Source of the DNA: Thermoanaerobaculia bacterium
GTDB taxonomy: Bacteria > Acidobacteriota > Thermoanaerobaculia > Gp7-AA8
NCBI GenBank assembly: GCA_035576005.1
Contig: DATLXH010000026.1
Span: 4,229 to 68,228 of the forward strand
Reading direction: 5' to 3'
Length of the DNA: 64,000 nt
Positions 10,859 through 64,000 of the stretch are shown piece by piece (the first letter of the stretch is position 1; each line of letters begins with the position of its first letter). The notes beneath the pieces were generated by a model. That model saw nothing but the letters and a program-made list of their open reading frames with translations. It was not told the origin of the DNA and did no database searches. A program made the translations under genes and the position numbers.

Positions 10859-13588
10859 ATGATGAATAAGGTTCTTACTTTGATTTTCGGCTCGAAGCAT
10901 GAGCGCGATGTCAAAAAGATGTTGCCGGTTGTGGCCGAGATCAACGCGCTCGAGCCTTCGATCGTCCCGCTCACGGATGAACAGCTGCGAGGCAAGACGC
11001 TCGAGTTTCGTGCCCGCCTTCGACCTGCCGTTGAGGCGATCGAGACCCTTCAGCGGGAGAGCCCCGCCGAGGAAGCAGAGATCAAACTTGCAAAAGAAGA
11101 GCTGAAGGCTCAGCTCGACGCACTCCTGCCAGAGGCGTTCGCTGTCTGTCGCGAGGCAGCGAAGAGAAGTGTCGGCATGCGGCATTTTGACGTCCAGTTG
11201 ATGGGAGGCATCGTCCTGCACAACGGCAGGATCGCAGAGATGAAAACCGGCGAGGGGAAGACCCTCATGGCGACCTTGCCGGTCTATCTGAATGCTCTGA
11301 CCGGACGCGGTATGCACGTGGTGACGGTGAACGATTACCTCGCGCGGCGGGACTCTGAGTGGATGGGTCGGGTCTACAAGTTTCTAGGTCTGAGCGTGGG
11401 AGTGATCCAGAACAATCACGGCGACCGCGAACGGCAGATCGCCTATGGCTCGGACGTCACGTACGGGACGAACAACGAGTTCGGATTCGACTACCTTCGC
11501 GACAACATGAAGTTCGACCTCGAGGCCATGGTGCAGCGAAGTCACGTGTACGCGATCGTCGACGAGGTCGACTCGATCCTGATTGATGAGGCGCGGACTC
11601 CACTCATCATCAGCGGCCCCTCTGAGGAGTCTGTCGACAAGTACTACTCGGTCGATCGAATCATTCCGCGTCTGGTCAAAGAGAAAGACTTTCAGATCGA
11701 CGAGAAGCAGCATACGGCTGTCCTGACTGAAGAGGGCGTGCTGCACGCCGAACAGCTGCTCGGGATCGAAAACCTTTACGACCCCGCGAACATGGACGTG
11801 CTCCATCACGTGAACCAGGCGTTGAAGGCACACACGCTGTACCGCGTGGACGTCGATTACGTGGTGACCGACGGCGAGGTGATCATCGTCGACGAATTCA
11901 CGGGAAGGCTGATGCCGGGCCGACGCTGGTCCGATGGACTGCATCAGGCAGTCGAAGCGAAGCAGGGGGTAAAGATCGAAGCAGAGAATCAGACGCTCGC
12001 CACGATCACGTTCCAGAACTACTTCCGCATGTACGAGAAACTCGGTGGTATGACCGGCACGGCCGACACAGAGGCCGCCGAGTTCGACAAGATCTACAGC
12101 CTCGAAGTCGTGGTGGTTCCTTCCAACAGGCCGATGGTCCGAGACGATCGTGCGGACCTCGTGTATCGCACGGAGACGGAAAAGTTCGCAGCGATCGTGG
12201 AAGAAATCAAAGAGCGACACAGTGAGGGGCAGCCGAGCCTTGTCGGTACCATCTCGATCGAAAAGTCCGAGCATCTTGGATCTCTGCTCAAGAAGCAGGG
12301 CATACCGCACGTCGTCCTGAACGCGAAGTACCACGAACGTGAGGCGGAGATCGTGGCGCAGGCTGGTCACAAAGGCGCCGTCACGATCGCGACGAACATG
12401 GCGGGGCGCGGCACAGACATCCTCCTCGGTGGCAACCCGGAGTATCTCGCGCTGCAGAAATCGAAAGGCGTCGAGGATCTTCTGGAGCGTAAGACGATCG
12501 AGGAAAAGATCAAGACGGCGTGGGATGAGGAGCATGCCGAGGTTGTCGATGCCGGCGGTCTGCACATCATCGGCACGGAAAGGCACGAGTCACGAAGAAT
12601 CGACAACCAGCTCAGAGGTCGTGCGGGAAGGCAGGGTGATCCTGGCTCGTCCCGTTTCTATCTTTCCCTCGAAGACGATCTCATGCGGATCTTCGGTTCC
12701 GATCGGATCTCCGGATTGATGCAGCGGCTTGGGATGGAAGAAGGAGTGCCGATCGAGCATGGAATGGTCAGCCGCGCCATCGAGCGTGCACAGAAACAGG
12801 TGGAGGGCCGGAACTTCGAGGCGCGGAAACATCTGCTCGAATATGACGACGTGATGAACAAGCAGCGGGCGTCGATCTACTCGCTGCGTCGCAACATCCT
12901 CGAGGGACGCGAGGGGCGTGAATACATTCTCAACGCCTCCGAAGATATCGTCGATTACCTCATCGAGACGCACCTGCCGCAGGATAATTCTTCCGAAGAG
13001 CCGAACCTGACTGAGTTCTGGGCCGAGATTTACGACTTCTTCGGGATCGATCCGAAATCTCTAACGTTCGACGCCGCGACGGCTGGTCGGGAGACCTTCA
13101 AATCCGAGCTCATTGACGCTTCCAGGAAGCGTTACGAAGAAAAAGAAGCGATGGTCGGCGCTGAGCTCATGCGCGTCCACGAGAAATATCTTCTCCTCCA
13201 GGTCATTGACGCTCAGTGGAAGGATCACTTGCTGGTTCTCGATCATCTGAAAGAAGGGATCGGCCTGCGCGGCTACGGTCAGAGGGATCCGCTCATTGAG
13301 TACAAGCGCGAGTCGTTCGATCTTTTCCAGTCGATGATGGAGCGAATCCAGGATCGCGTGGTCAAGTACCTCTGGAAGATCGAGGTGATGGTGGAGGGAC
13401 GCGAGGAGGCCGCACCTGCCCGTCTTCGCCGTGCGCCCGAGCCGCCGCGCCAGAACCTGATGTTTTCAGGAGCCCCGAAGGAGATGCAGGCCCCGATCAA
13501 GCGGCGCGAGGACAAGGTAGGACGAAACGATCCCTGTCCGTGCGGCTCGGGAAAAAAGTACAAAAAGTGCCATGGCACTGCCGCCTAG
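10859..13588 (+). CDS. secA: Preprotein translocase ATPase SecA, with C-terminal zinc-binding SEC-C motif
   Basis: [24 protein letters not shown]-like motor motifs, and [14 protein letters not shown] at the C-terminus. Confidence 0.95.
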
Positions 13589-24218: not shown

Positions 24219-24295
<77 letters not shown>

Positions 24296-24301
24296 ATCCC
24301 T

Positions 24302-24387
<86 letters not shown>

Positions 24388-59376: not shown

Positions 59377-59765
59377 GATTCCCTCTCCTCGGCGCGCCCG
59401 GCAATTTTTTTCGTCAGCGTCGTTGCGTCAAATCCGGTGGATGTGAAGAAGCCGGCGGCGTAACAGTCGTTTGCGACAGCGAGTTCTGTAAGACCTTCTA
59501 CGGCTGCAAGTCTTTCGATCTCCCGCATGAAGATGGTTCCTGCACGCTTGCGCCGTAGCGGTTGGGAGACAAAGATCTTCTGGATCGTCAGCTGAGTCTC
59601 CGCTTCCCGGGTGAGCGCGAAAGCGACGACGTCACCGGCGAGCTTACCCAGAAAGCCAGCCAGTTCTCCCTCCGCTCTTGCGGTGTCTATGCCGGAATCG
59701 AGATGTCTGATCTCGCTCCAGTCACTTACGAGGATTCGTCGAACAAAGAGTTTTTGACCTTTCAT
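59373..59765 (-). CDS. GNAT-family N-acetyltransferase (putative)
   Basis: 130 aa. RRKRAGTIFMREIERLA resembles the GNAT motif A (R/Q-x-x-G-x-G/A) region. Overlaps the slt start by 4 bp. Weak assignment. Confidence 0.4.
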   Translation of the reverse strand: MKGQKLFVRRILVSDWSEIRHLDSGIDTARAEGELAGFLGKLAGDVVAFALTREAETQLTIQKIFVSQPLRRKRAGTIFMREIERLAAVEGLTELAVANDCYAAGFFTSTGFDATTLTKKIAGRAEERES

Positions 59766-59895
59766 CGAGCGTCCTGGGGACTGGTCTCCGTGACGAGGGG
59801 ACCCGATCGATCAACTATAGACGTTACGTTGCGGTAAACCCGTTCGGATTCCTCCCTGAATGGGAAGTTTGAGGTCCAGCATCAGTTATACTGTT

Positions 59896-59927
59896 CAAAA
59901 TAAATATTTTCTTGACAAAAACTCCAA
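59896..59927 (+). promoter_or_regulatory. Candidate sigma-70-like promoter (TTGACA-N16-TACACT) in an AT-rich patch upstream of the recombinase gene
   Basis: ttcttgacaaaaactccaacggatttacactgacg. Local GC drops to about 35% over 59880-59960. Confidence 0.3.
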
Positions 59928-59978
59928 CGGATTTACACTGACGGCACCTCCCCTTAGGTTCCAAAGAATCCAAAGAAG

Positions 59979-60995
59979 ATGACAACTATGAACGTTCAAC
60001 AGGCGATCGACCGCTTTCTCGAAGACGGACACACCCGGAATCTCTCCGAACGCACCCTGCGCGCGTACCAGTCGGACCTCACGCAGTTTCAGCACCATGT
60101 GAGTGATGCCGCTGCTACGGAGATTACACACGACGTGCTCGAAAAGTACCTCGAGATGCTCGGCACCGGGGCCTATCGTGATACGTCTATCCGGCGCAAG
60201 GTCGCTGCACTTAAGGTCTTTTTCCGATATCTCGAGGAAGACGGCGTCGTTACGGCTTCGCCTGCAAAGATGCTCAAGATTAAGCAGCCGGTCGAGAACC
60301 GGATGCCTGTAGTGCTGTCCAATCGTGAGATTAAAGCTCTTCTGGCAGCTCCTAAAAAGCTGATCGAACGGCTTGCGTCCCGCCAGAACGATTCTGCAGG
60401 GGGGCGAAATCGCTTCTTCTGCGCGGTCCGCGACAATCTCATCATCGAGTTGCTGCTCACCACCGGCATGAGGATCGGTGAGCTCGTCGCCCTGGATGTG
60501 TCCGATGTGGAGCGCGAATCCTCGCAGTTGCGCATCACGGGGCGTTCGATGCGCGGCAGATCCGTGTCCATCACCTCGGCTCCGATCATTGAGCTCCTCA
60601 ACAACTATCTCGAGATGAGAAGCGAGCGGAAGCCCGATACGACAGCGCTGTTCATCGGTCGCTCGGGGACACGATTGACCATCTACTCCATCGAGAACAT
60701 CTTCAAGAAGCATGTGCGAGTTGCCGAGATCAAACGTCATGTGACTCCGCATTCGCTGCGGCACACGATGGCTGCAAATCTGGTCAACAGCGGTACCGAC
60801 ATCCGTGCGGTGCAGGAGATGCTGGGGCACGCTTCGATTCTCTCGACGCAGGTCTACACAAAGCTGCCGCCGTTGCGTGCCCGACGAAAGGTGGAATCTC
60901 GTGACGTTCCTGTCGTGGTACTGGCGGAAGCGTCGAGCGACATGTCACCAGAGCAGACGGTTCCTGTCGACCGCCTTTCGATTCGCAGGAAGTAA
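59979..60995 (+). CDS. Tyrosine site-specific recombinase, XerC/XerD family
   Basis: N-terminal SAM-like domain (RTLRAYQSDLTQF). Catalytic R...HxLRH...Y: HSLRHTMAANLVNSGTDIRAVQEMLGHASILSTQVYTKL. Confidence 0.85.
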   Translation: MTTMNVQQAIDRFLEDGHTRNLSERTLRAYQSDLTQFQHHVSDAAATEITHDVLEKYLEMLGTGAYRDTSIRRKVAALKVFFRYLEEDGVVTASPAKMLKIKQPVENRMPVVLSNREIKALLAAPKKLIERLASRQNDSAGGRNRFFCAVRDNLIIELLLTTGMRIGELVALDVSDVERESSQLRITGRSMRGRSVSITSAPIIELLNNYLEMRSERKPDTTALFIGRSGTRLTIYSIENIFKKHVRVAEIKRHVTPHSLRHTMAANLVNSGTDIRAVQEMLGHASILSTQVYTKLPPLRARRKVESRDVPVVVLAEASSDMSPEQTVPVDRLSIRRK

Positions 60996-61142
60996 CTCTG
61001 GCCGTTGTCATTGCGCTTCAGCATGTGCTGTCGCGCGTCGGCCACCTGCTCTCAGCTCAGTTGGTAGAGTACAAGCTTCCCAAGCTTGGTGTCGTGGCCC
61101 GGCAGGCTGCGTTTGACTGTGTCGCACAGGCACACATAAACT

Positions 61143-61379
61143 GTGTTCATGAAGAATATCACCCTCAGTGTCGACGAGAAGGTCCTCTCCGCGGTGCGAC
61201 AACATGCCGCCGCGCGCTCGACGTCAGTCAACCAGATCGTCCGCGACTATCTCGGCGAGATTGCGCAGCGCGACAATCGTGCGCGCGGGGCGCGCCGGCG
61301 TCTGCGCTCGCTCAGCAATCGTTCGGTCGCGAAGATCGGGCGTGCTTCGTGGACTCGCCAGGAGCTCCATGAGCGTTGA
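61143..61379 (+). CDS. vapB: Type II antitoxin (VapB-like)
   Basis: 78 aa. ITLSVDEKVLSAVRQHAAARSTSVNQIVRDYL DNA-binding antitoxin fold. Stop overlaps the PIN gene start (ATG at 61369). Confidence 0.6.
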   Translation: MFMKNITLSVDEKVLSAVRQHAAARSTSVNQIVRDYLGEIAQRDNRARGARRRLRSLSNRSVAKIGRASWTRQELHER

Positions 61380-61782
61380 CTGTTTTCTCGATACGAACGT
61401 GATCGTCTACGCTGCGGCCGGGCGTGGCGGCGAGAGCGCAAAGCGCAAACGCGCTCTCGATCTTATCGAGACTCGCGAGTTCGGACTCTCAGCCCAGGTC
61501 CTCCAGGAGTTCTACGTCACGGTCGTTCACAAGATCGAGATCCCTCTCGCGCCAATCGAGGCACTCGAGTGGATCGAGCAACTCGAAGCGTTTCCGTGTC
61601 TCCCCGTCGATTCCGGACTCGTGAAGGTCGCCGCCGAGCTCAGCCTCCGGCACCGAATCTCGTATTGGGACGGAGCGATCCTCGCTGCGGCGGAGTCTCT
61701 GGGCGCAGCGGTCCTCTATAGCGAGGATCTCAGCCACGGTCAACGTTACGGACTCGTTCAAGTCCTGAATCCTTTCATGTAG
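61369..61782 (+). CDS. vapC: PIN-domain toxin (VapC-like ribonuclease)
   Basis: CFLDTNVIVYAA (first acidic residue), SAQVLQEF, WDGAILAAAESLGAAVLYSEDL. 137 aa. The six-frame ORF 61168..61782 is an out-of-context 5' extension. Confidence 0.75.
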   Translation: MSVDCFLDTNVIVYAAAGRGGESAKRKRALDLIETREFGLSAQVLQEFYVTVVHKIEIPLAPIEALEWIEQLEAFPCLPVDSGLVKVAAELSLRHRISYWDGAILAAAESLGAAVLYSEDLSHGQRYGLVQVLNPFM

Positions 61783-62021
61783 GAGCTTCCCAACTCTTGT
61801 GATCATCCGACATCACCTTGGCCATCAATGTGGCCCCCTCGGACCTGATTGGCATGCTTGCAGAGCCGCGTGGCCAACACGTCCGCCGCGGTGGCGAGCG
61901 GCGTGATGCGCAACGGCGGTGCGGGCTCAACCCGTGAATCACGGATCCATCTTGCTGACGAGCGCCATTGGGATCGCATCAAGGTTGACGCGACTCCATC
62001 GGCAAGGCCATAGTTCGCTCG

Positions 62022-63999
62022 ATGCGCTCACTCCTTCCTTTTCGTTCCCGTCGTCATGATTGTGAGTGGATCGGAGGTCGTTACACGCTTCCGAACAAGG
62101 TTCGCGTTGGCGACGTGGTGGTACAGCCCGAAGTGGTCCTGTGGCTCGAGTTGCCGCGCGGAGTCATTGTCGGCACGAAGATCACCGTCCCAGGCGAACC
62201 GGTTCCGTTCGCGGAGACTTTGAAGGACTCGATGAAGCACCCTGCCGAGGGATCACCCAGGCAGCCGTCACGCATTCGCGTGCCGGAGGCGCAACTTGCC
62301 GAGGCTCTGCGGGGGGCGATTGGCAGCGGGGTCCCTGTCATCATCGCGCCTGTGCCCGAGTTGGACGCTGCCTTCGCGGATCTTACTCATGCGATCGCCG
62401 GAACCGAGCCTCGACCGGCGTATCAATCGTATCTGGGCGGCGGGGCGATCTCGCCGGCGGTGGTTGCCAGGCTCTTCTCCGCCGCGAGCATTCTGTTCCG
62501 GGCCGCCCCGTGGCGCCACGTTTCGGAAGAACAGATCCTGCGCGTCGATATCCCGCGTCTCGCGGTCGACGGAGGGTGTCTGTCCGTCATCGGTGGCGCG
62601 GGTGAGAGTTTCGGTTTGCTGCTTTTCCGCTCGATTGAAGCCTACAAGGCGTTCGCGAGCGGGCCGCCCGCGCCGGCAAGCGAGGAAGAGTTGTTCGCTC
62701 CGCGCCCGGATCGCGAGGCTTCCCTTCTCTCCCTTTCGTTCGACCGCAAGAAGGACCTCCCTTCTTCGATGCAACGCGAGATCGAGCACCATCGCTGGTC
62801 CGTTGCTGGAGCGAAGGCCTACCCGGCTTTGATCGCACTCGATACAGACGCGATTCCGCTACAGCCAACCGAGCGCGCTTTCCAGATCATGACTGTTTGC
62901 ACATCCGCGTTCCTGGCATTCCTGGCGAGCCATCGGAATCTCTTCGATGCCGACGATCCGGAAACGATCTGCGAGTCATTCACCAGCGACGACGATGTGA
63001 CGGTGACCCTTACCGCGCCGTACGGAACGAACGCACTCTTCGATGTGGAGGATTTCTTCAGCCCCGAGGCGGACGCGTTTCTGGAGCGCACTCCGACGCG
63101 GCCCGCGGCCGGAAGGAACGACCCCTGCCCGTGTGGAAGCGGAAAGAAGTATAAGAAGTGTCACCTCGACGCCGACCGCTCTGGCAAAGAACTCACATCG
63201 GAAAGCGCCCCCGTTCATGAGATGGACTTTCGCCTCGTCAGTTCCATCGGGCGATTCGCCTCCAGCCGTTTTGGTGACTCATGGCTGGGCCGCCCGGCAG
63301 AAGACTTCAAAGACGACGAGGCGGCGCTCCAGCTCTTCCCCCCGTGGGTTGCATGGACGGCAGTCGTCGACGGGAAGAGGATTGCAGATGTCTTTTTCGA
63401 GGAGAAGGGCGCGCGCCTGTCTTCGGACGAGCGCGACTGGTTTGACGCCCAGCGGCGCGTATGGCTAAGCGTTTGGGAAGTCACCAGAGTCGTTCCCGGA
63501 ACGATCGATGTGCGCGACCCGCTGACCGGTCAGAAGCGTTCCGTACGGGAGGGCCGCGGATCGCGCTTGGTCGTGGCGCGCGATGCCCTGCTCGCCCGAG
63601 TGGTCGATTTTCACGGCCTCTCGCTCTTCGACGGGATGTACGGGCGCGCGCTTCCGCCCGCGGATGCGCTCGAGGTGATTCGCAGCGTTCGTTCCAAGCT
63701 GCGTGTGAGCAAGGGAGATGTCGCTGTGGAACGCTTGCAGGATCCGAAGATCGGCCGCTTCATGATCGACCGCTGGCGTGAGGCAGTTGACGATCTGGAT
63801 CGCCGGGCATCCATTCCTCCGGTGCTGGAGAACACCGATGGCGATCCACTGCTGTTCGTGACCGAGTCGTTTCAGTTCGAAAACAGTGCGCGCGCCGAGA
63901 TCGAGGAGCGTCTGTTGAAAATGGATGGCCTCGACGACGTCCGAACCGCGAATGGAGAAAGCGAGCTTACCTTCGTCCGCCTGGGAAATCCACTTCACA
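62022..63999 (+). CDS. Large uncharacterized protein with internal SEC-C metal-binding motif ([13 protein letters not shown]); partial, continues past the window end
   Basis: Open frame (positions = 0 mod 3) from the stop at 61986 to the window edge; first Met at 62022, and no stop within the window, so it is not listed in the ORF track. Over 650 aa. Confidence 0.55.
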   Translation, partial: MRSLLPFRSRRHDCEWIGGRYTLPNKVRVGDVVVQPEVVLWLELPRGVIVGTKITVPGEPVPFAETLKDSMKHPAEGSPRQPSRIRVPEAQLAEALRGAIGSGVPVIIAPVPELDAAFADLTHAIAGTEPRPAYQSYLGGGAISPAVVARLFSAASILFRAAPWRHVSEEQILRVDIPRLAVDGGCLSVIGGAGESFGLLLFRSIEAYKAFASGPPAPASEEELFAPRPDREASLLSLSFDRKKDLPSSMQREIEHHRWSVAGAKAYPALIALDTDAIPLQPTERAFQIMTVCTSAFLAFLASHRNLFDADDPETICESFTSDDDVTVTLTAPYGTNALFDVEDFFSPEADAFLERTPTRPAAGRNDPCPCGSGKKYKKCHLDADRSGKELTSESAPVHEMDFRLVSSIGRFASSRFGDSWLGRPAEDFKDDEAALQLFPPWVAWTAVVDGKRIADVFFEEKGARLSSDERDWFDAQRRVWLSVWEVTRVVPGTIDVRDPLTGQKRSVREGRGSRLVVARDALLARVVDFHGLSLFDGMYGRALPPADALEVIRSVRSKLRVSKGDVAVERLQDPKIGRFMIDRWREAVDDLDRRASIPPVLENTDGDPLLFVTESFQFENSARAEIEERLLKMDGLDDVRTANGESELTFVRLGNPLH

Positions 64000-64000
64000 A

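Follow-up and report, generated by a model that had tools for sequence, protein, structure and literature searches.

Overall organization of the segment

The right-hand end of the 64,000-nucleotide stretch of Thermoanaerobaculia DNA analysed here (the window) is probably a composite, in which about 3.8 kb of foreign DNA, consisting of two integrase-less cassettes, has been added at a tRNA-Gly(CCC) gene next to a resident Xer-family recombinase. The acquired DNA is an ordinary kind of small genomic islet with one uncharacterised protein family as cargo. In the 5' to 3' direction, the order is recombinase, a tRNA fragment (positions 9–52), vapBC, a degenerate anticodon-arm fragment, the SEC-C gene and an intact tRNA. 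The AT-rich patch, recombinase, vapBC pair and large open reading frame listed in a preliminary description were all recovered, and the features are as follows.

59766–59978, no strand: AT-rich intergenic region separating the divergent GNAT (-) and recombinase (+) genes
59912–59939, + strand: sigma-70-like promoter, TTGACA-16-TACACT
59979–60995, + strand: Xer-family tyrosine recombinase, 338-residue open reading frame
61054–61096, + strand: fragment A, left direct repeat, tRNA-Gly(CCC) positions 9–52
61113–61142, + strand: vapBC promoter (TTGACT-18-TAAACT) and palindromic operator (ACACAG..CTGTGT)
61143–61379, + strand: vapB, ribbon-helix-helix (RHH) antitoxin
61369/61372–61782, + strand: vapC, PIN-domain toxin, overlapping vapB
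61779–61799, + strand: fragment B, degenerate tRNA-Gly(CCC) anticodon arm, positions 24–45 with one base deleted
62022–64442 (window part 62022–64000), + strand: SEC-C protein gene (P0001), 806 residues, stop codon beyond the window
62064–62396, + strand: DUF6930-type RNase H-like fold, residues 15–125
62454–63026, + strand: DUF7309, residues 145–335
63114–63167, + strand: SEC-C zinc knuckle, residues 365–382
From extended coordinate 64866: intact tRNA-Gly(CCC), 3.8 kb downstream of fragment A and 866 nt past the window end

The suggestion that vapBC and the SEC-C gene are accessory was borne out, as none of the 80 related loci has a homologue of vapB, vapC or the SEC-C gene downstream of the recombinase. 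The GC content of the insert is raised only marginally (0.618 versus 0.587±0.016). No integrase was found between the repeats in the open reading frame list, the Pfam domain search or the gene calls, and neither an empty-site strain nor a circular or excised form was found.

tRNA-derived repeats and the vapBC module

The att-like direct repeats anticipated for the segment are derived from tRNA-Gly(CCC) and bracket vapBC and the SEC-C gene. In the nearest relatives (L009, L012, L022, L027, L041, L074 and L081), a whole tRNA-Gly(CCC) lies 66–343 nt after the recombinase. At this position the window contains only the internal fragment A, whose distance from the recombinase stop codon agrees with that of the tRNA in the relatives. 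Fragment A comprises the D arm, anticodon arm, variable loop and the start of the T stem. Over its first 30 nt (61054–61083), it shows no difference from the 5' part of the intact tRNA with which the L001 contig ends, and by hand count it agrees with the real tRNA allele of L081 at 41 of 43 bases. Neither ARAGORN nor Rfam called it as a tRNA. Since fragment A lacks both tRNA positions 1–8 and the -10 box found upstream of the relatives' tRNA, a single clean integration is insufficient, and a later deletion or an extra event is needed. The right-hand tRNA-Gly was read to position 38, where the L001 contig ends, and its intactness refers to the 5' half.

Fragment B (GTAGGAGCTTCCCAA-CTCTTG) is located exactly where the vapBC DNA homology to other genomes stops, and is probably the junction between the two cassettes. 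It is short and only moderately above background, with a score of 35–37 where the background over 1.07 Mb peaks at 31; a chance hit of this kind within 3.8 kb has a roughly estimated expectation of 0.005. The score is 37 against another species' tRNA allele and 20 against the host allele, which argues for import with a cassette rather than local duplication.

VapB matches the Pfam families DUF6364 (E 2.7e-6) and RHH_1 (E 5e-4) and is called as a gene in L001, with an alternative start at 61149 that gives 76 residues. VapC matches the PIN family (E 7e-14) and has acidic residues where a PIN active site should have them (D7, E46, D100 and D119). The pair resembles type II VapBC systems in the overlap of an RHH antitoxin gene with a PIN toxin gene, in the palindromic promoter operator and in these acidic residues, but differs in that the C terminus of VapC is about 4 residues shorter than in close relatives (137–144 residues at 86–92% identity), because its stop codon, which lies inside fragment B, is supplied by the tRNA-derived junction. 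Four other vapBC loci share the promoter/operator sequence, with which the DNA homology begins (the left unit end); this homology breaks at 61776–61780. The identity of VapC to its relatives reaches 92%, compared to only ~70–83% for host core genes, which we count as mobility of vapBC. Of the vapBC relatives examined, most lie away from tRNA genes; thus, vapBC is to be regarded as cargo rather than as an element dedicated to tRNA targets. Judging from its sequence, vapBC would be an ordinary addiction or stress module, with a PIN RNase neutralised by an RHH repressor, and as an addiction module it would help to keep the islet in place.

In the ancestral state of this lineage, the recombinase gene would have been followed directly by tRNA-Gly(CCC). 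The ~3.8 kb would then have been added at the tRNA, with site-specific recombination around the anticodon stem-loop as the most likely route, as a 0.7-kb cassette carrying the vapBC toxin-antitoxin (TA) module and a 3-kb cassette carrying the solitary SEC-C gene together with a promoter and a 5' part that rebuilt the tRNA. Neither cassette contains an integrase, and the recombining enzyme may have acted in trans or have since been lost.

An unlikely alternative dispenses with site-specific integration altogether, such that tRNA-Gly was duplicated locally and decayed, and vapBC and the SEC-C gene entered by illegitimate or homologous recombination. Such a history would fit the loss of both tRNA ends from fragment A, its left flank, which is unlike the ancestral promoter, and the presence of vapBC relatives in non-tRNA contexts without repeats. 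However, the vapBC homology unit begins and ends at fragment boundaries, the allele preference of fragment B (37 versus 20) points away from the host, and several other genomes contain fragment arrays that begin at or near the anticodon arm.

Related arrays at tRNA-Gly(CCC)

Integrase-less cassette arrays are also found at tRNA-Gly(CCC) in two other genomes. In L074, the order is recombinase, tRNA-Gly, a PIN and Phd-like pair, a fragment, one gene, a fragment, one gene and a fragment. In L092, tRNA-Gly is followed by two fragments and then, 26 nt after the second, by a vapBC with a VapC that shares 86% identity with that of the window (~81% DNA identity). The same geometry recurs in L016, L048 and L056, where 5'-half tRNA fragments likewise lie on the left.

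These arrangements suggest that att-flanked remnants have probably accumulated in tandem at a tRNA hotspot, in a manner comparable to that of the cis-mobilizable elements of Streptococcus and the tycheposons of Prochlorococcus. Tandem integrations with partial tRNAs between them have been described for tycheposon islands (10.1101/2020.12.28.424599). The shared features are partial-tRNA direct repeats separating successive cargo, pieces of which some are integrase-less, newer arrivals that push older ones along, and cargo that varies between related genomes. In contrast to these systems, the cassettes of the window type are very small (0.7–3 kb, with one gene or one TA pair), an integrase-bearing parent element was not seen in the loci examined, and the left fragment of the window lacks positions 1–8. 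Furthermore, the 3' part of the tRNA is usually supplied by the incoming DNA, whereas the intact tRNA of the window is at the far end, so that here the 5' part would have been supplied by the incoming DNA.

It is rather improbable that the locus is an integron-like platform, in which the resident Xer-like recombinase would itself insert cassettes that lack an integrase into the anticodon arm of the neighbouring tRNA-Gly(CCC) and build arrays beside its own gene. The recombinase gene and the tRNA are adjacent and on the same strand in the lineage of the window, the cassettes of the window and L074 are small, integrase-less and limited to one gene or TA pair (0.7–3 kb), and both window fragments keep the anticodon stem-loop, an inverted repeat around a 7-nt loop, as is usual for tyrosine-recombinase core sites. 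Nevertheless, an array of this kind is present in L092, where the surrounding 10 kb yielded no homologue of the recombinase, and in many relatives the recombinase and the tRNA are separated by 1–9 kb that contain conserved housekeeping-like genes and no repeats. Moreover, fragment arrays occur in only a handful of the 80 loci, the cassette orientation is mixed, and the recombinase scores 95 bits with the integron-integrase model (cut-off 265).

The recombinase locus

The public protein record of the recombinase starts 3 codons later (59988) and contains 335 residues. The protein consists of an N-terminal SAM-like domain and a Phage_integrase domain (Pfam, E 1e-36) with the catalytic motifs TGMR, HSLRH, LGH and VYT, and its best matches by NCBIfam and PDB are XerD, XerC and XerA. 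It shares with these dimer-resolution recombinases the two-domain architecture, the catalytic-type motifs and a single conserved chromosomal locus per genome in 80 species. It differs in scoring far under the XerC/XerD equivalog cut-offs of 330–335 bits (XerD 209, XerC 208, the nearest NCBIfam models) and in a 40-residue C-terminal extension with a conserved basic motif at its end.

The 80 orthologous loci belong to 80 Thermoanaerobaculia/Acidobacteriota species (64–72% identity), and nearly all have mfd, slt and GNAT, in this order, as neighbours on the left-hand side. This arrangement is the conserved Xer gene with syntenic neighbours that the preliminary description had named as speaking against its own reading. 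The recombinase, which it had read as part of an accessory-looking segment, is therefore not the integrase of an element but a resident, vertically inherited chromosomal gene located outside the repeats. The AT-rich patch (GC 0.479, window 0.588) is likewise no island edge but a native divergent promoter region, whose sigma-70-like promoter matches the consensus at 10 of 12 positions and whose GNAT-recombinase pair is kept in relatives.

A single mobile element or defence island, with the recombinase (59979–60995) as its own integrase, vapBC as stabiliser and the SEC-C protein as defence cargo, is very improbable: the recombinase adjoins a tRNA-derived repeat and a TA pair and falls below the XerC/XerD cut-offs (209 versus 330–335 bits), but its position outside the repeats, its neighbours in 80 species with core-gene-like identities, by which this reading is already contradicted, and the absence of the cargo downstream of it in 80/80 loci all oppose this model, and PADLOC matched only the 18-residue SEC-C motif, with no system-level match.

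The SEC-C protein

The large open reading frame starts at ATG 62022, stays open for 659 codons up to the window end and, as described earlier, continues past it. The stop codon is 442 nt beyond, which gives 806 residues, a large protein but not the giant one envisaged, and 423 untranslated nt separate the stop from tRNA-Gly(CCC). SEC-C (Pfam, E 1e-10; invariant residues R365, N366, C369, C371, S373, K376, Y377, K378 and C380) is not the sole recognisable feature, as had been thought: Pfam also detects DUF7309, and relatives display DUF6930, DUF7986 and an Xre_MbcA_ParS_C-like C terminus. In P0001, SEC-C is followed by DUF7986 and then by a DUF2384-like tail. The family has a wide distribution, with 890 cluster representatives at E≤1e-30, and occurs as a solitary gene in unrelated contexts, which weakens the element or defence reading of the protein.

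Acidic residues of the N-terminal fold are conserved among 55 family members: E15 in all 51 aligned there, E43 in 55/55 (51 E, 4 D), position 89 in 80%, E113 invariant and D115 in 52/55 (49 D, 3 E). These residues lie on strand 1, behind strand 4 and on the helix that follows strand 5, as in RNase H-like/DDE transferases (the retroviral integrase core, TnsB, IstA and Mos1), a match to the catalytic residues in secondary-structure order only. In contrast to these enzymes, the identity is 6–14%, the profile gave no signal with HIV integrase, RuvC or RNase H, Foldseek found nothing below E 1e-3, and the gene lacks inverted repeats and multi-copy behaviour. That an unrecognised insertion sequence, with P0001 as its transposase, inserted itself at the site is hardly credible: the integrase/transposase-core-like fold with its acidic residues, the zinc knuckle downstream and the solitary gene would suit it, but terminal inverted repeats around the gene are absent, the clusters are small and mostly single-contig, the nearest relatives are ~66% identical, close to host divergence, and there are no phage matches, with plasmids matching the C-terminal half only.

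The CxCx8CH zinc knuckle and its flanking signature are shared with the SecA C-terminal tail, YecA and YchJ; in SecA, the motif binds SecB and ribosomes (10.1101/613315). P0001 differs from these proteins in carrying the motif centrally and not at an end, within a disordered linker, and in being a multidomain protein that lacks a UPF0149 or NTF2-like domain and a translocase ATPase. The RNase H-fold integrase-core-like domain with its conserved acidic residues, a second related domain, the zinc knuckle and the C-terminal helical domain together suggest that P0001 may be a nucleic-acid-processing enzyme or scaffold. C-terminal helical domains of this type are used by antitoxins for binding partner proteins. 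No RES or ADP-ribosyltransferase toxin gene was found beside SEC-C homologues in the eight chromosomal and three plasmid loci examined. With the C-terminal domain model of the Xre/MbcA/ParS antitoxins (DUF2384), P0001 itself scores 15.4 bits (cut-off 24.5), whereas 32 of the 55 family members match at E≤0.01 (best 1.6e-6).

Organization of the locus

The segment lies at the right-hand end of the window and continues into L001, a 3,839-bp Logan contig that overlaps window positions 61065-64000 exactly and adds 903 nt. Positions beyond 64000 are extended coordinates.

Features of the window and its rightward extension
10859-13588, + strand: 909-aa ORF with a SEC-C motif at its C-terminal end
24220-24387, + strand: tRNA-Lys(CTT) and tRNA-Leu(TAG), in tandem
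59766-59978: GNAT-recombinase intergenic region, GC 0.479 (window 0.588)
59912-59939: sigma-70-like site inside this intergenic region
59979-60995, + strand: two-domain tyrosine recombinase (Pfam Phage_integrase PF00589, E 1e-36)
61054-61096: fragment A, tRNA-Gly(CCC) positions 9-52, between the recombinase gene and vapB
61143-61379: vapB, ribbon-helix-helix gene overlapping the PIN gene by 8-11 nt
61369-61782: vapC, PIN gene overlapping vapB, with conserved PIN acidic residues
61779-61799: fragment B, GTAGGAGCTTCCCAA-CTCTTG, matching the anticodon arm (positions 24-45) of the tRNA-Gly(CCC) allele of other species
62022 (ATG) to the window end, stop at 64442: SEC-C gene, SEC-C motif at residues 365-382
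64443-64865 (L001 3379-3801): spacer, 423 nt untranslated from the SEC-C stop to the tRNA
64866-64903: right copy, tRNA-Gly(CCC) 5' half, read to position 38 at the end of L001

The preliminary description had likened the combination of recombinase, toxin-antitoxin pair and SEC-C protein to the architecture of integrated elements and defence islands. The components that it listed are all present: the AT-rich patch before the recombinase, the overlapping antitoxin/PIN toxin pair, and the open frame with a SEC-C motif, which continues past the window end and is completed by L001 to 806 residues. The interpretation holds in part, in that vapBC and the SEC-C gene are acquired and are bounded by tRNA-derived repeats, but the recombinase belongs to the chromosomal core. 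A recombinase beside a toxin-antitoxin pair does not by itself mark a mobile element, and synteny needs to be checked first; here only the neighbours of the recombinase are acquired.

The recombinase is a conserved chromosomal gene

The recombinase has an N-terminal SAM-like core-binding domain (PF02899, E 3e-14) and all of the catalytic residues R..HxxR..H..Y, in the motifs TGMR162, HSLRH258, LGH282 and VYT292. Its closest families are XerD, XerC and XerA (~209 bits), far under the equivalog cut-offs (208.8 and 208.2 bits with the two NCBIfam models, XerC and XerD, whose thresholds are 329.6 and 335.15), and its orthologues carry the public names 'tyrosine-type recombinase/integrase', 'XerD' or 'XerC/XerD'. 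With each species represented by a single genome, a scan gave orthologues at 64-72% identity in 80 loci, all from Thermoanaerobaculia or unclassified Acidobacteriota. When these loci were searched by tblastn with the window's own proteins, mfd, a lytic transglycosylase-like gene (slt) and the GNAT gene were found on the same side of the recombinase in nearly every locus that was long enough, and vapB, vapC and the SEC-C gene were downstream of it in none of the 80. The recombinase is a conserved chromosomal core gene rather than cargo; it is not element-borne, because its orthologues share the left-hand synteny in 80 species.

The recombinase has a C-terminal extension of ~40 residues beyond the usual Xer length (window 60880-60995, and orthologues in loci L009-L081), closed by a conserved basic motif that is RLSIRRK in the window, whereas relatives have KLPIKKK or KLTIKKQR. 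In two loci only (L067, 2575-3357, and L072, 4192-4974, both on the - strand), another tyrosine recombinase is encoded 6-7 kb upstream of the conserved gene; it shows 31% identity over 280 residues and could be a partner Xer or an integrase.

Direct repeats derived from tRNA-Gly(CCC)

The insert between the recombinase and the right tRNA copy is bounded by direct repeats derived from tRNA-Gly(CCC), namely fragment A and the 5' half at 64866-64903; att-like repeats beyond the window were what the preliminary description had advised looking for. Between the repeats lie vapB, vapC and the SEC-C gene only, with no integrase. Integrase-less remnants flanked by att sites are known as cis-mobilizable elements. 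Fragment A lacks tRNA positions 1-8 and everything beyond position 52, and is not called as a tRNA by ARAGORN or Rfam; an Rfam search of 59700-64000 returned no RNA family, and the 423-nt spacer has no Rfam match. A figure of 100% over positions 9-52 for fragment A is circular, as the allele used was built from the fragment itself. Independent support comes from window 61054-61083, which is identical to the last 30 nt of L001, and from a base count by hand, in which 41 of the 43 bases match the real tRNA-Gly(CCC) allele of a related locus (L081). Fragment B scores 35-37, whereas the highest background score across 1.07 Mb of related sequence is 31; from that background, the chance of a similar match within 3.8 kb is estimated at roughly 0.005. 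It supplies the stop codon of vapC, and the close relatives of VapC extend about four residues further at the C terminus. The sole complete tRNA genes in the window are the tandem tRNA-Lys(CTT) and tRNA-Leu(TAG).

Fragment A, 62-105 nt past the recombinase stop, occupies the site of the tRNA in relatives: in seven of the loci, with L009, L012, L074 and L027 as several of the closest among them, tRNA-Gly(CCC) lies directly behind the recombinase, in the same orientation and at a distance of 66-343 nt. Elsewhere the tRNA is 1.3-9.5 kb from the recombinase with recurrent conserved genes between, and the distance therefore reflects lineage-specific gene order, not a universal hotspot. In relatives, a TACAAT/TAGAAT box is located ~20 nt upstream of tRNA-Gly(CCC). 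The right tRNA copy has TAGAAT ~75 nt upstream, ~55 nt further than in relatives, and fragment A has no such box upstream, which indicates that the left junction was remodelled and that a single clean integration is insufficient. A metagenome scan with the 3' end of the recombinase found no empty-site strain.

The vapBC module

The two small genes have the arrangement of a type II VapBC system, with a PIN toxin bearing conserved acidic residues encoded after an overlapping gene for a small DNA-binding antitoxin, and their sequences make them most likely an ordinary PIN/ribbon-helix-helix addiction module. Many VapC relatives are 86-92% identical; host genes reach at most ~70% identity in species representatives, and 83% for the recombinase (orthologue P0380). 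DNA homology to four other vapBC loci begins at window 61096/61112, at the vapBC promoter immediately behind fragment A, and stops at 61776/61780, at fragment B. Three of the four are in a non-tRNA context and the fourth is locus L092. Eight further, more distant vapBC loci were recovered in a metagenome scan through a shared operator; none of the eight has a tRNA-Gly nearby, and vapBC is thus cargo rather than a tRNA-specific element.

Cassette arrays in other genomes

Locus L092 (2213-6426) contains an intact tRNA-Gly(CCC), behind which lie two fragments, the first covering positions 30-76 and the second positions 56-76; the vapBC promoter lies 26 nt after the second fragment, and the VapC is 86% identical to that of the window. 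In L074 (8604-11800, 97-3290 nt after the recombinase), an intact tRNA-Gly(CCC) precedes three tandem units, all of which end in a degenerate 3' tRNA fragment: a 0.7-kb PIN/Phd-like pair and two single genes whose products (329 and 337 aa) look secreted. None of the three units contains an integrase. Tycheposon islands, in which tandem integrations are divided by partial tRNAs and accompanied by degenerate remnants, resemble these arrays in having tandem cargo pieces with partial tRNA between (10.1101/2020.12.28.424599). Arrays at tRNA-Gly(CCC) made up of very small cassettes without an integrase recur in these little-studied soil Acidobacteriota.

Fragments of the 5' half of tRNA-Gly(CCC) are present in L016 (positions 1-42, about 12451-12492), L048 (positions 2-40) and L056 (positions 1-45), the latter two near the downstream ends of their loci. 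All three have a similar CCATGCCGATCATTTC-like sequence after the break, with the same geometry as in the window, and suggest an element family that displaces the tRNA 5' half. In L016, this sequence is followed by an island with a NACHT NTPase.

Origin of the locus

The locus probably comprises a resident recombinase gene and two integrase-less cassettes accreted at tRNA-Gly(CCC), with later remodelling of the left junction. Ancestrally, tRNA-Gly(CCC) would have stood next after the Xer-family recombinase gene. One cassette with vapBC and another with the SEC-C gene and a rebuilt 5' part of the tRNA, both lacking an integrase, would have accreted at the anticodon arm of the tRNA through recombination by an enzyme that acted in trans or has since been lost, and the left junction would have been altered subsequently. 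The locus is a tRNA-linked islet with a toxin-antitoxin module, of a kind already known, and carries a member of an uncharacterised but widespread protein family.

Local duplication and decay of the tRNA could also account for the fragments, which we consider unlikely. An integron-like platform, in which the resident Xer-like recombinase captures cassettes at the anticodon arm of tRNA-Gly(CCC), is improbable: the recombinase scores 95 bits with the integron-integrase model TIGR02249 (cut-off 265) and is not IntI-type, the separators in the arrays are tRNA fragments rather than attC-type sites, the cassettes of L074 and of L092 do not all point the same way, and a search of the 10 kb around the L092 array found no homologue of the recombinase. 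On this reading, the conserved recombinase beside tRNA-Gly(CCC) in Thermoanaerobaculia would act as a resident integrase capturing small integrase-less cassettes (toxin-antitoxin pairs, and single genes such as that of the SEC-C protein), which would amount to a tRNA-based, integron-like system of gene capture. An unrecognised transposase activity of the SEC-C protein is very improbable, as its gene has no terminal inverted repeats around it and shows no multi-copy behaviour; lacking such flanking repeats, the gene was also rejected as an insertion sequence. Finally, a single element carrying the recombinase as its own integrase, as first proposed, is contradicted by the mfd-slt-GNAT-recombinase synteny across the 80 loci, the observation that the preliminary description had itself named as decisive against it.

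The SEC-C protein family

The SEC-C protein is identical to P0001, an 806-aa protein from a Thermoanaerobaculia metagenome-assembled genome (73,971-bp contig). Its motif has the CxCx8C[H/C] pattern with the flanking residues (PF02810, E 1e-10), matches SecA and YchJ peptides in the PDB, and has cysteines (C369, C371 and C380) that are invariant in 55 aligned members. Among sequences clustered at 50% identity, 890 representatives belong to the family at E <= 1e-30 and 3,192 at E <= 1e-10, with named members in Acidobacteriota, Polyangia, Eisenbacteria and Nitrospirota. The preliminary description had named membership of a widespread housekeeping family as a finding that would go against its reading; the family is indeed widespread, but uncharacterised, and a literature search for DUF6930, DUF7309 and DUF7986 found no papers. 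DUF7309 and SEC-C are present in all 55 aligned members, DUF6930 in 51, and DUF7986 is recorded for most. Divergent proteins of the DUF6930-DUF7309-SEC-C-DUF7986 family number in the hundreds and come from several soil phyla. A C-terminal Xre_MbcA_ParS_C (DUF2384) domain is matched in 32 of the 55; P0001 is under the Pfam threshold (15.4 bits vs 24.5), which some relatives pass (e.g. P0044, 28.4 bits).

The gene stands alone: in seven loci of six homologues, examined in addition to that of the window, no neighbouring gene recurs, and no RES or ADP-ribosyltransferase toxin gene was found beside homologues in eight chromosomal and three plasmid loci. Proteins that consist of the C-terminal half only (~450 aa, from SEC-C onwards) are encoded, also by solitary genes, on Legionella, Methylomonas, Rhodococcus, Rhizobium and Ruegeria plasmids. 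No phage homologues were found. PADLOC gave no whole-protein match to a defence-system model; its only hits join the motif region (aa 338-393) to the tail ends of two models, E2 and PDC-S12. On the Ruegeria plasmid (L088; NZ_CP102411.1, 64717-65985), the C-terminal-half homologue is annotated as a DUF2384 protein, and is surrounded by small plasmid genes (WGR, DUF6429, DUF3560 and a methyltransferase) with no adjacent toxin gene annotated. An N-terminal-half homologue (49% identity over residues 1-385) is encoded in L040 (3711-4838, - strand), ~5 kb upstream of the recombinase and thus in another place than the copy in the window.

Predicted fold and function

An AlphaFold model based on 55 sequences (mean pLDDT 84.6) predicts an RNase H-like fold for the N-terminal domain. 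Of the conserved acidic residues, E15 is on strand 1 and E43 on strand 2, position 89 (D or E in 80%) comes behind strand 4, and the invariant E113 lies together with D115 on the helix that follows strand 5; these are the elements on which D, D, E catalytic residues would be expected. DUF7309 has the same predicted strand-helix order, with conserved D176, D245 and D286, the last of which is an alanine in the window protein. Foldseek found nothing below E 1e-3 in the PDB, and hhalign detected no similarity between the two N-terminal domains and HIV integrase, RuvC or RNase HI. The SEC-C knuckle is within a low-confidence linker of the model; in SecA, the same zinc-knuckle motif binds SecB and ribosomes (10.1101/613315). 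The most likely role of the protein is that of a scaffold or metal-dependent enzyme acting on nucleic acids and tethered by its SecA-type zinc knuckle; the fold offers this enzyme role as a first testable idea. Fold and conservation are all that point to catalysis, and a catalytic nuclease or transferase is a tentative assignment, somewhat short of even odds.

The 909-aa ORF at 10859-13588 is very likely secA itself, so that the translocase bearing the canonical motif would be encoded nearby; its SEC-C motif is 79% identical to that of the large SEC-C protein over 28 residues.
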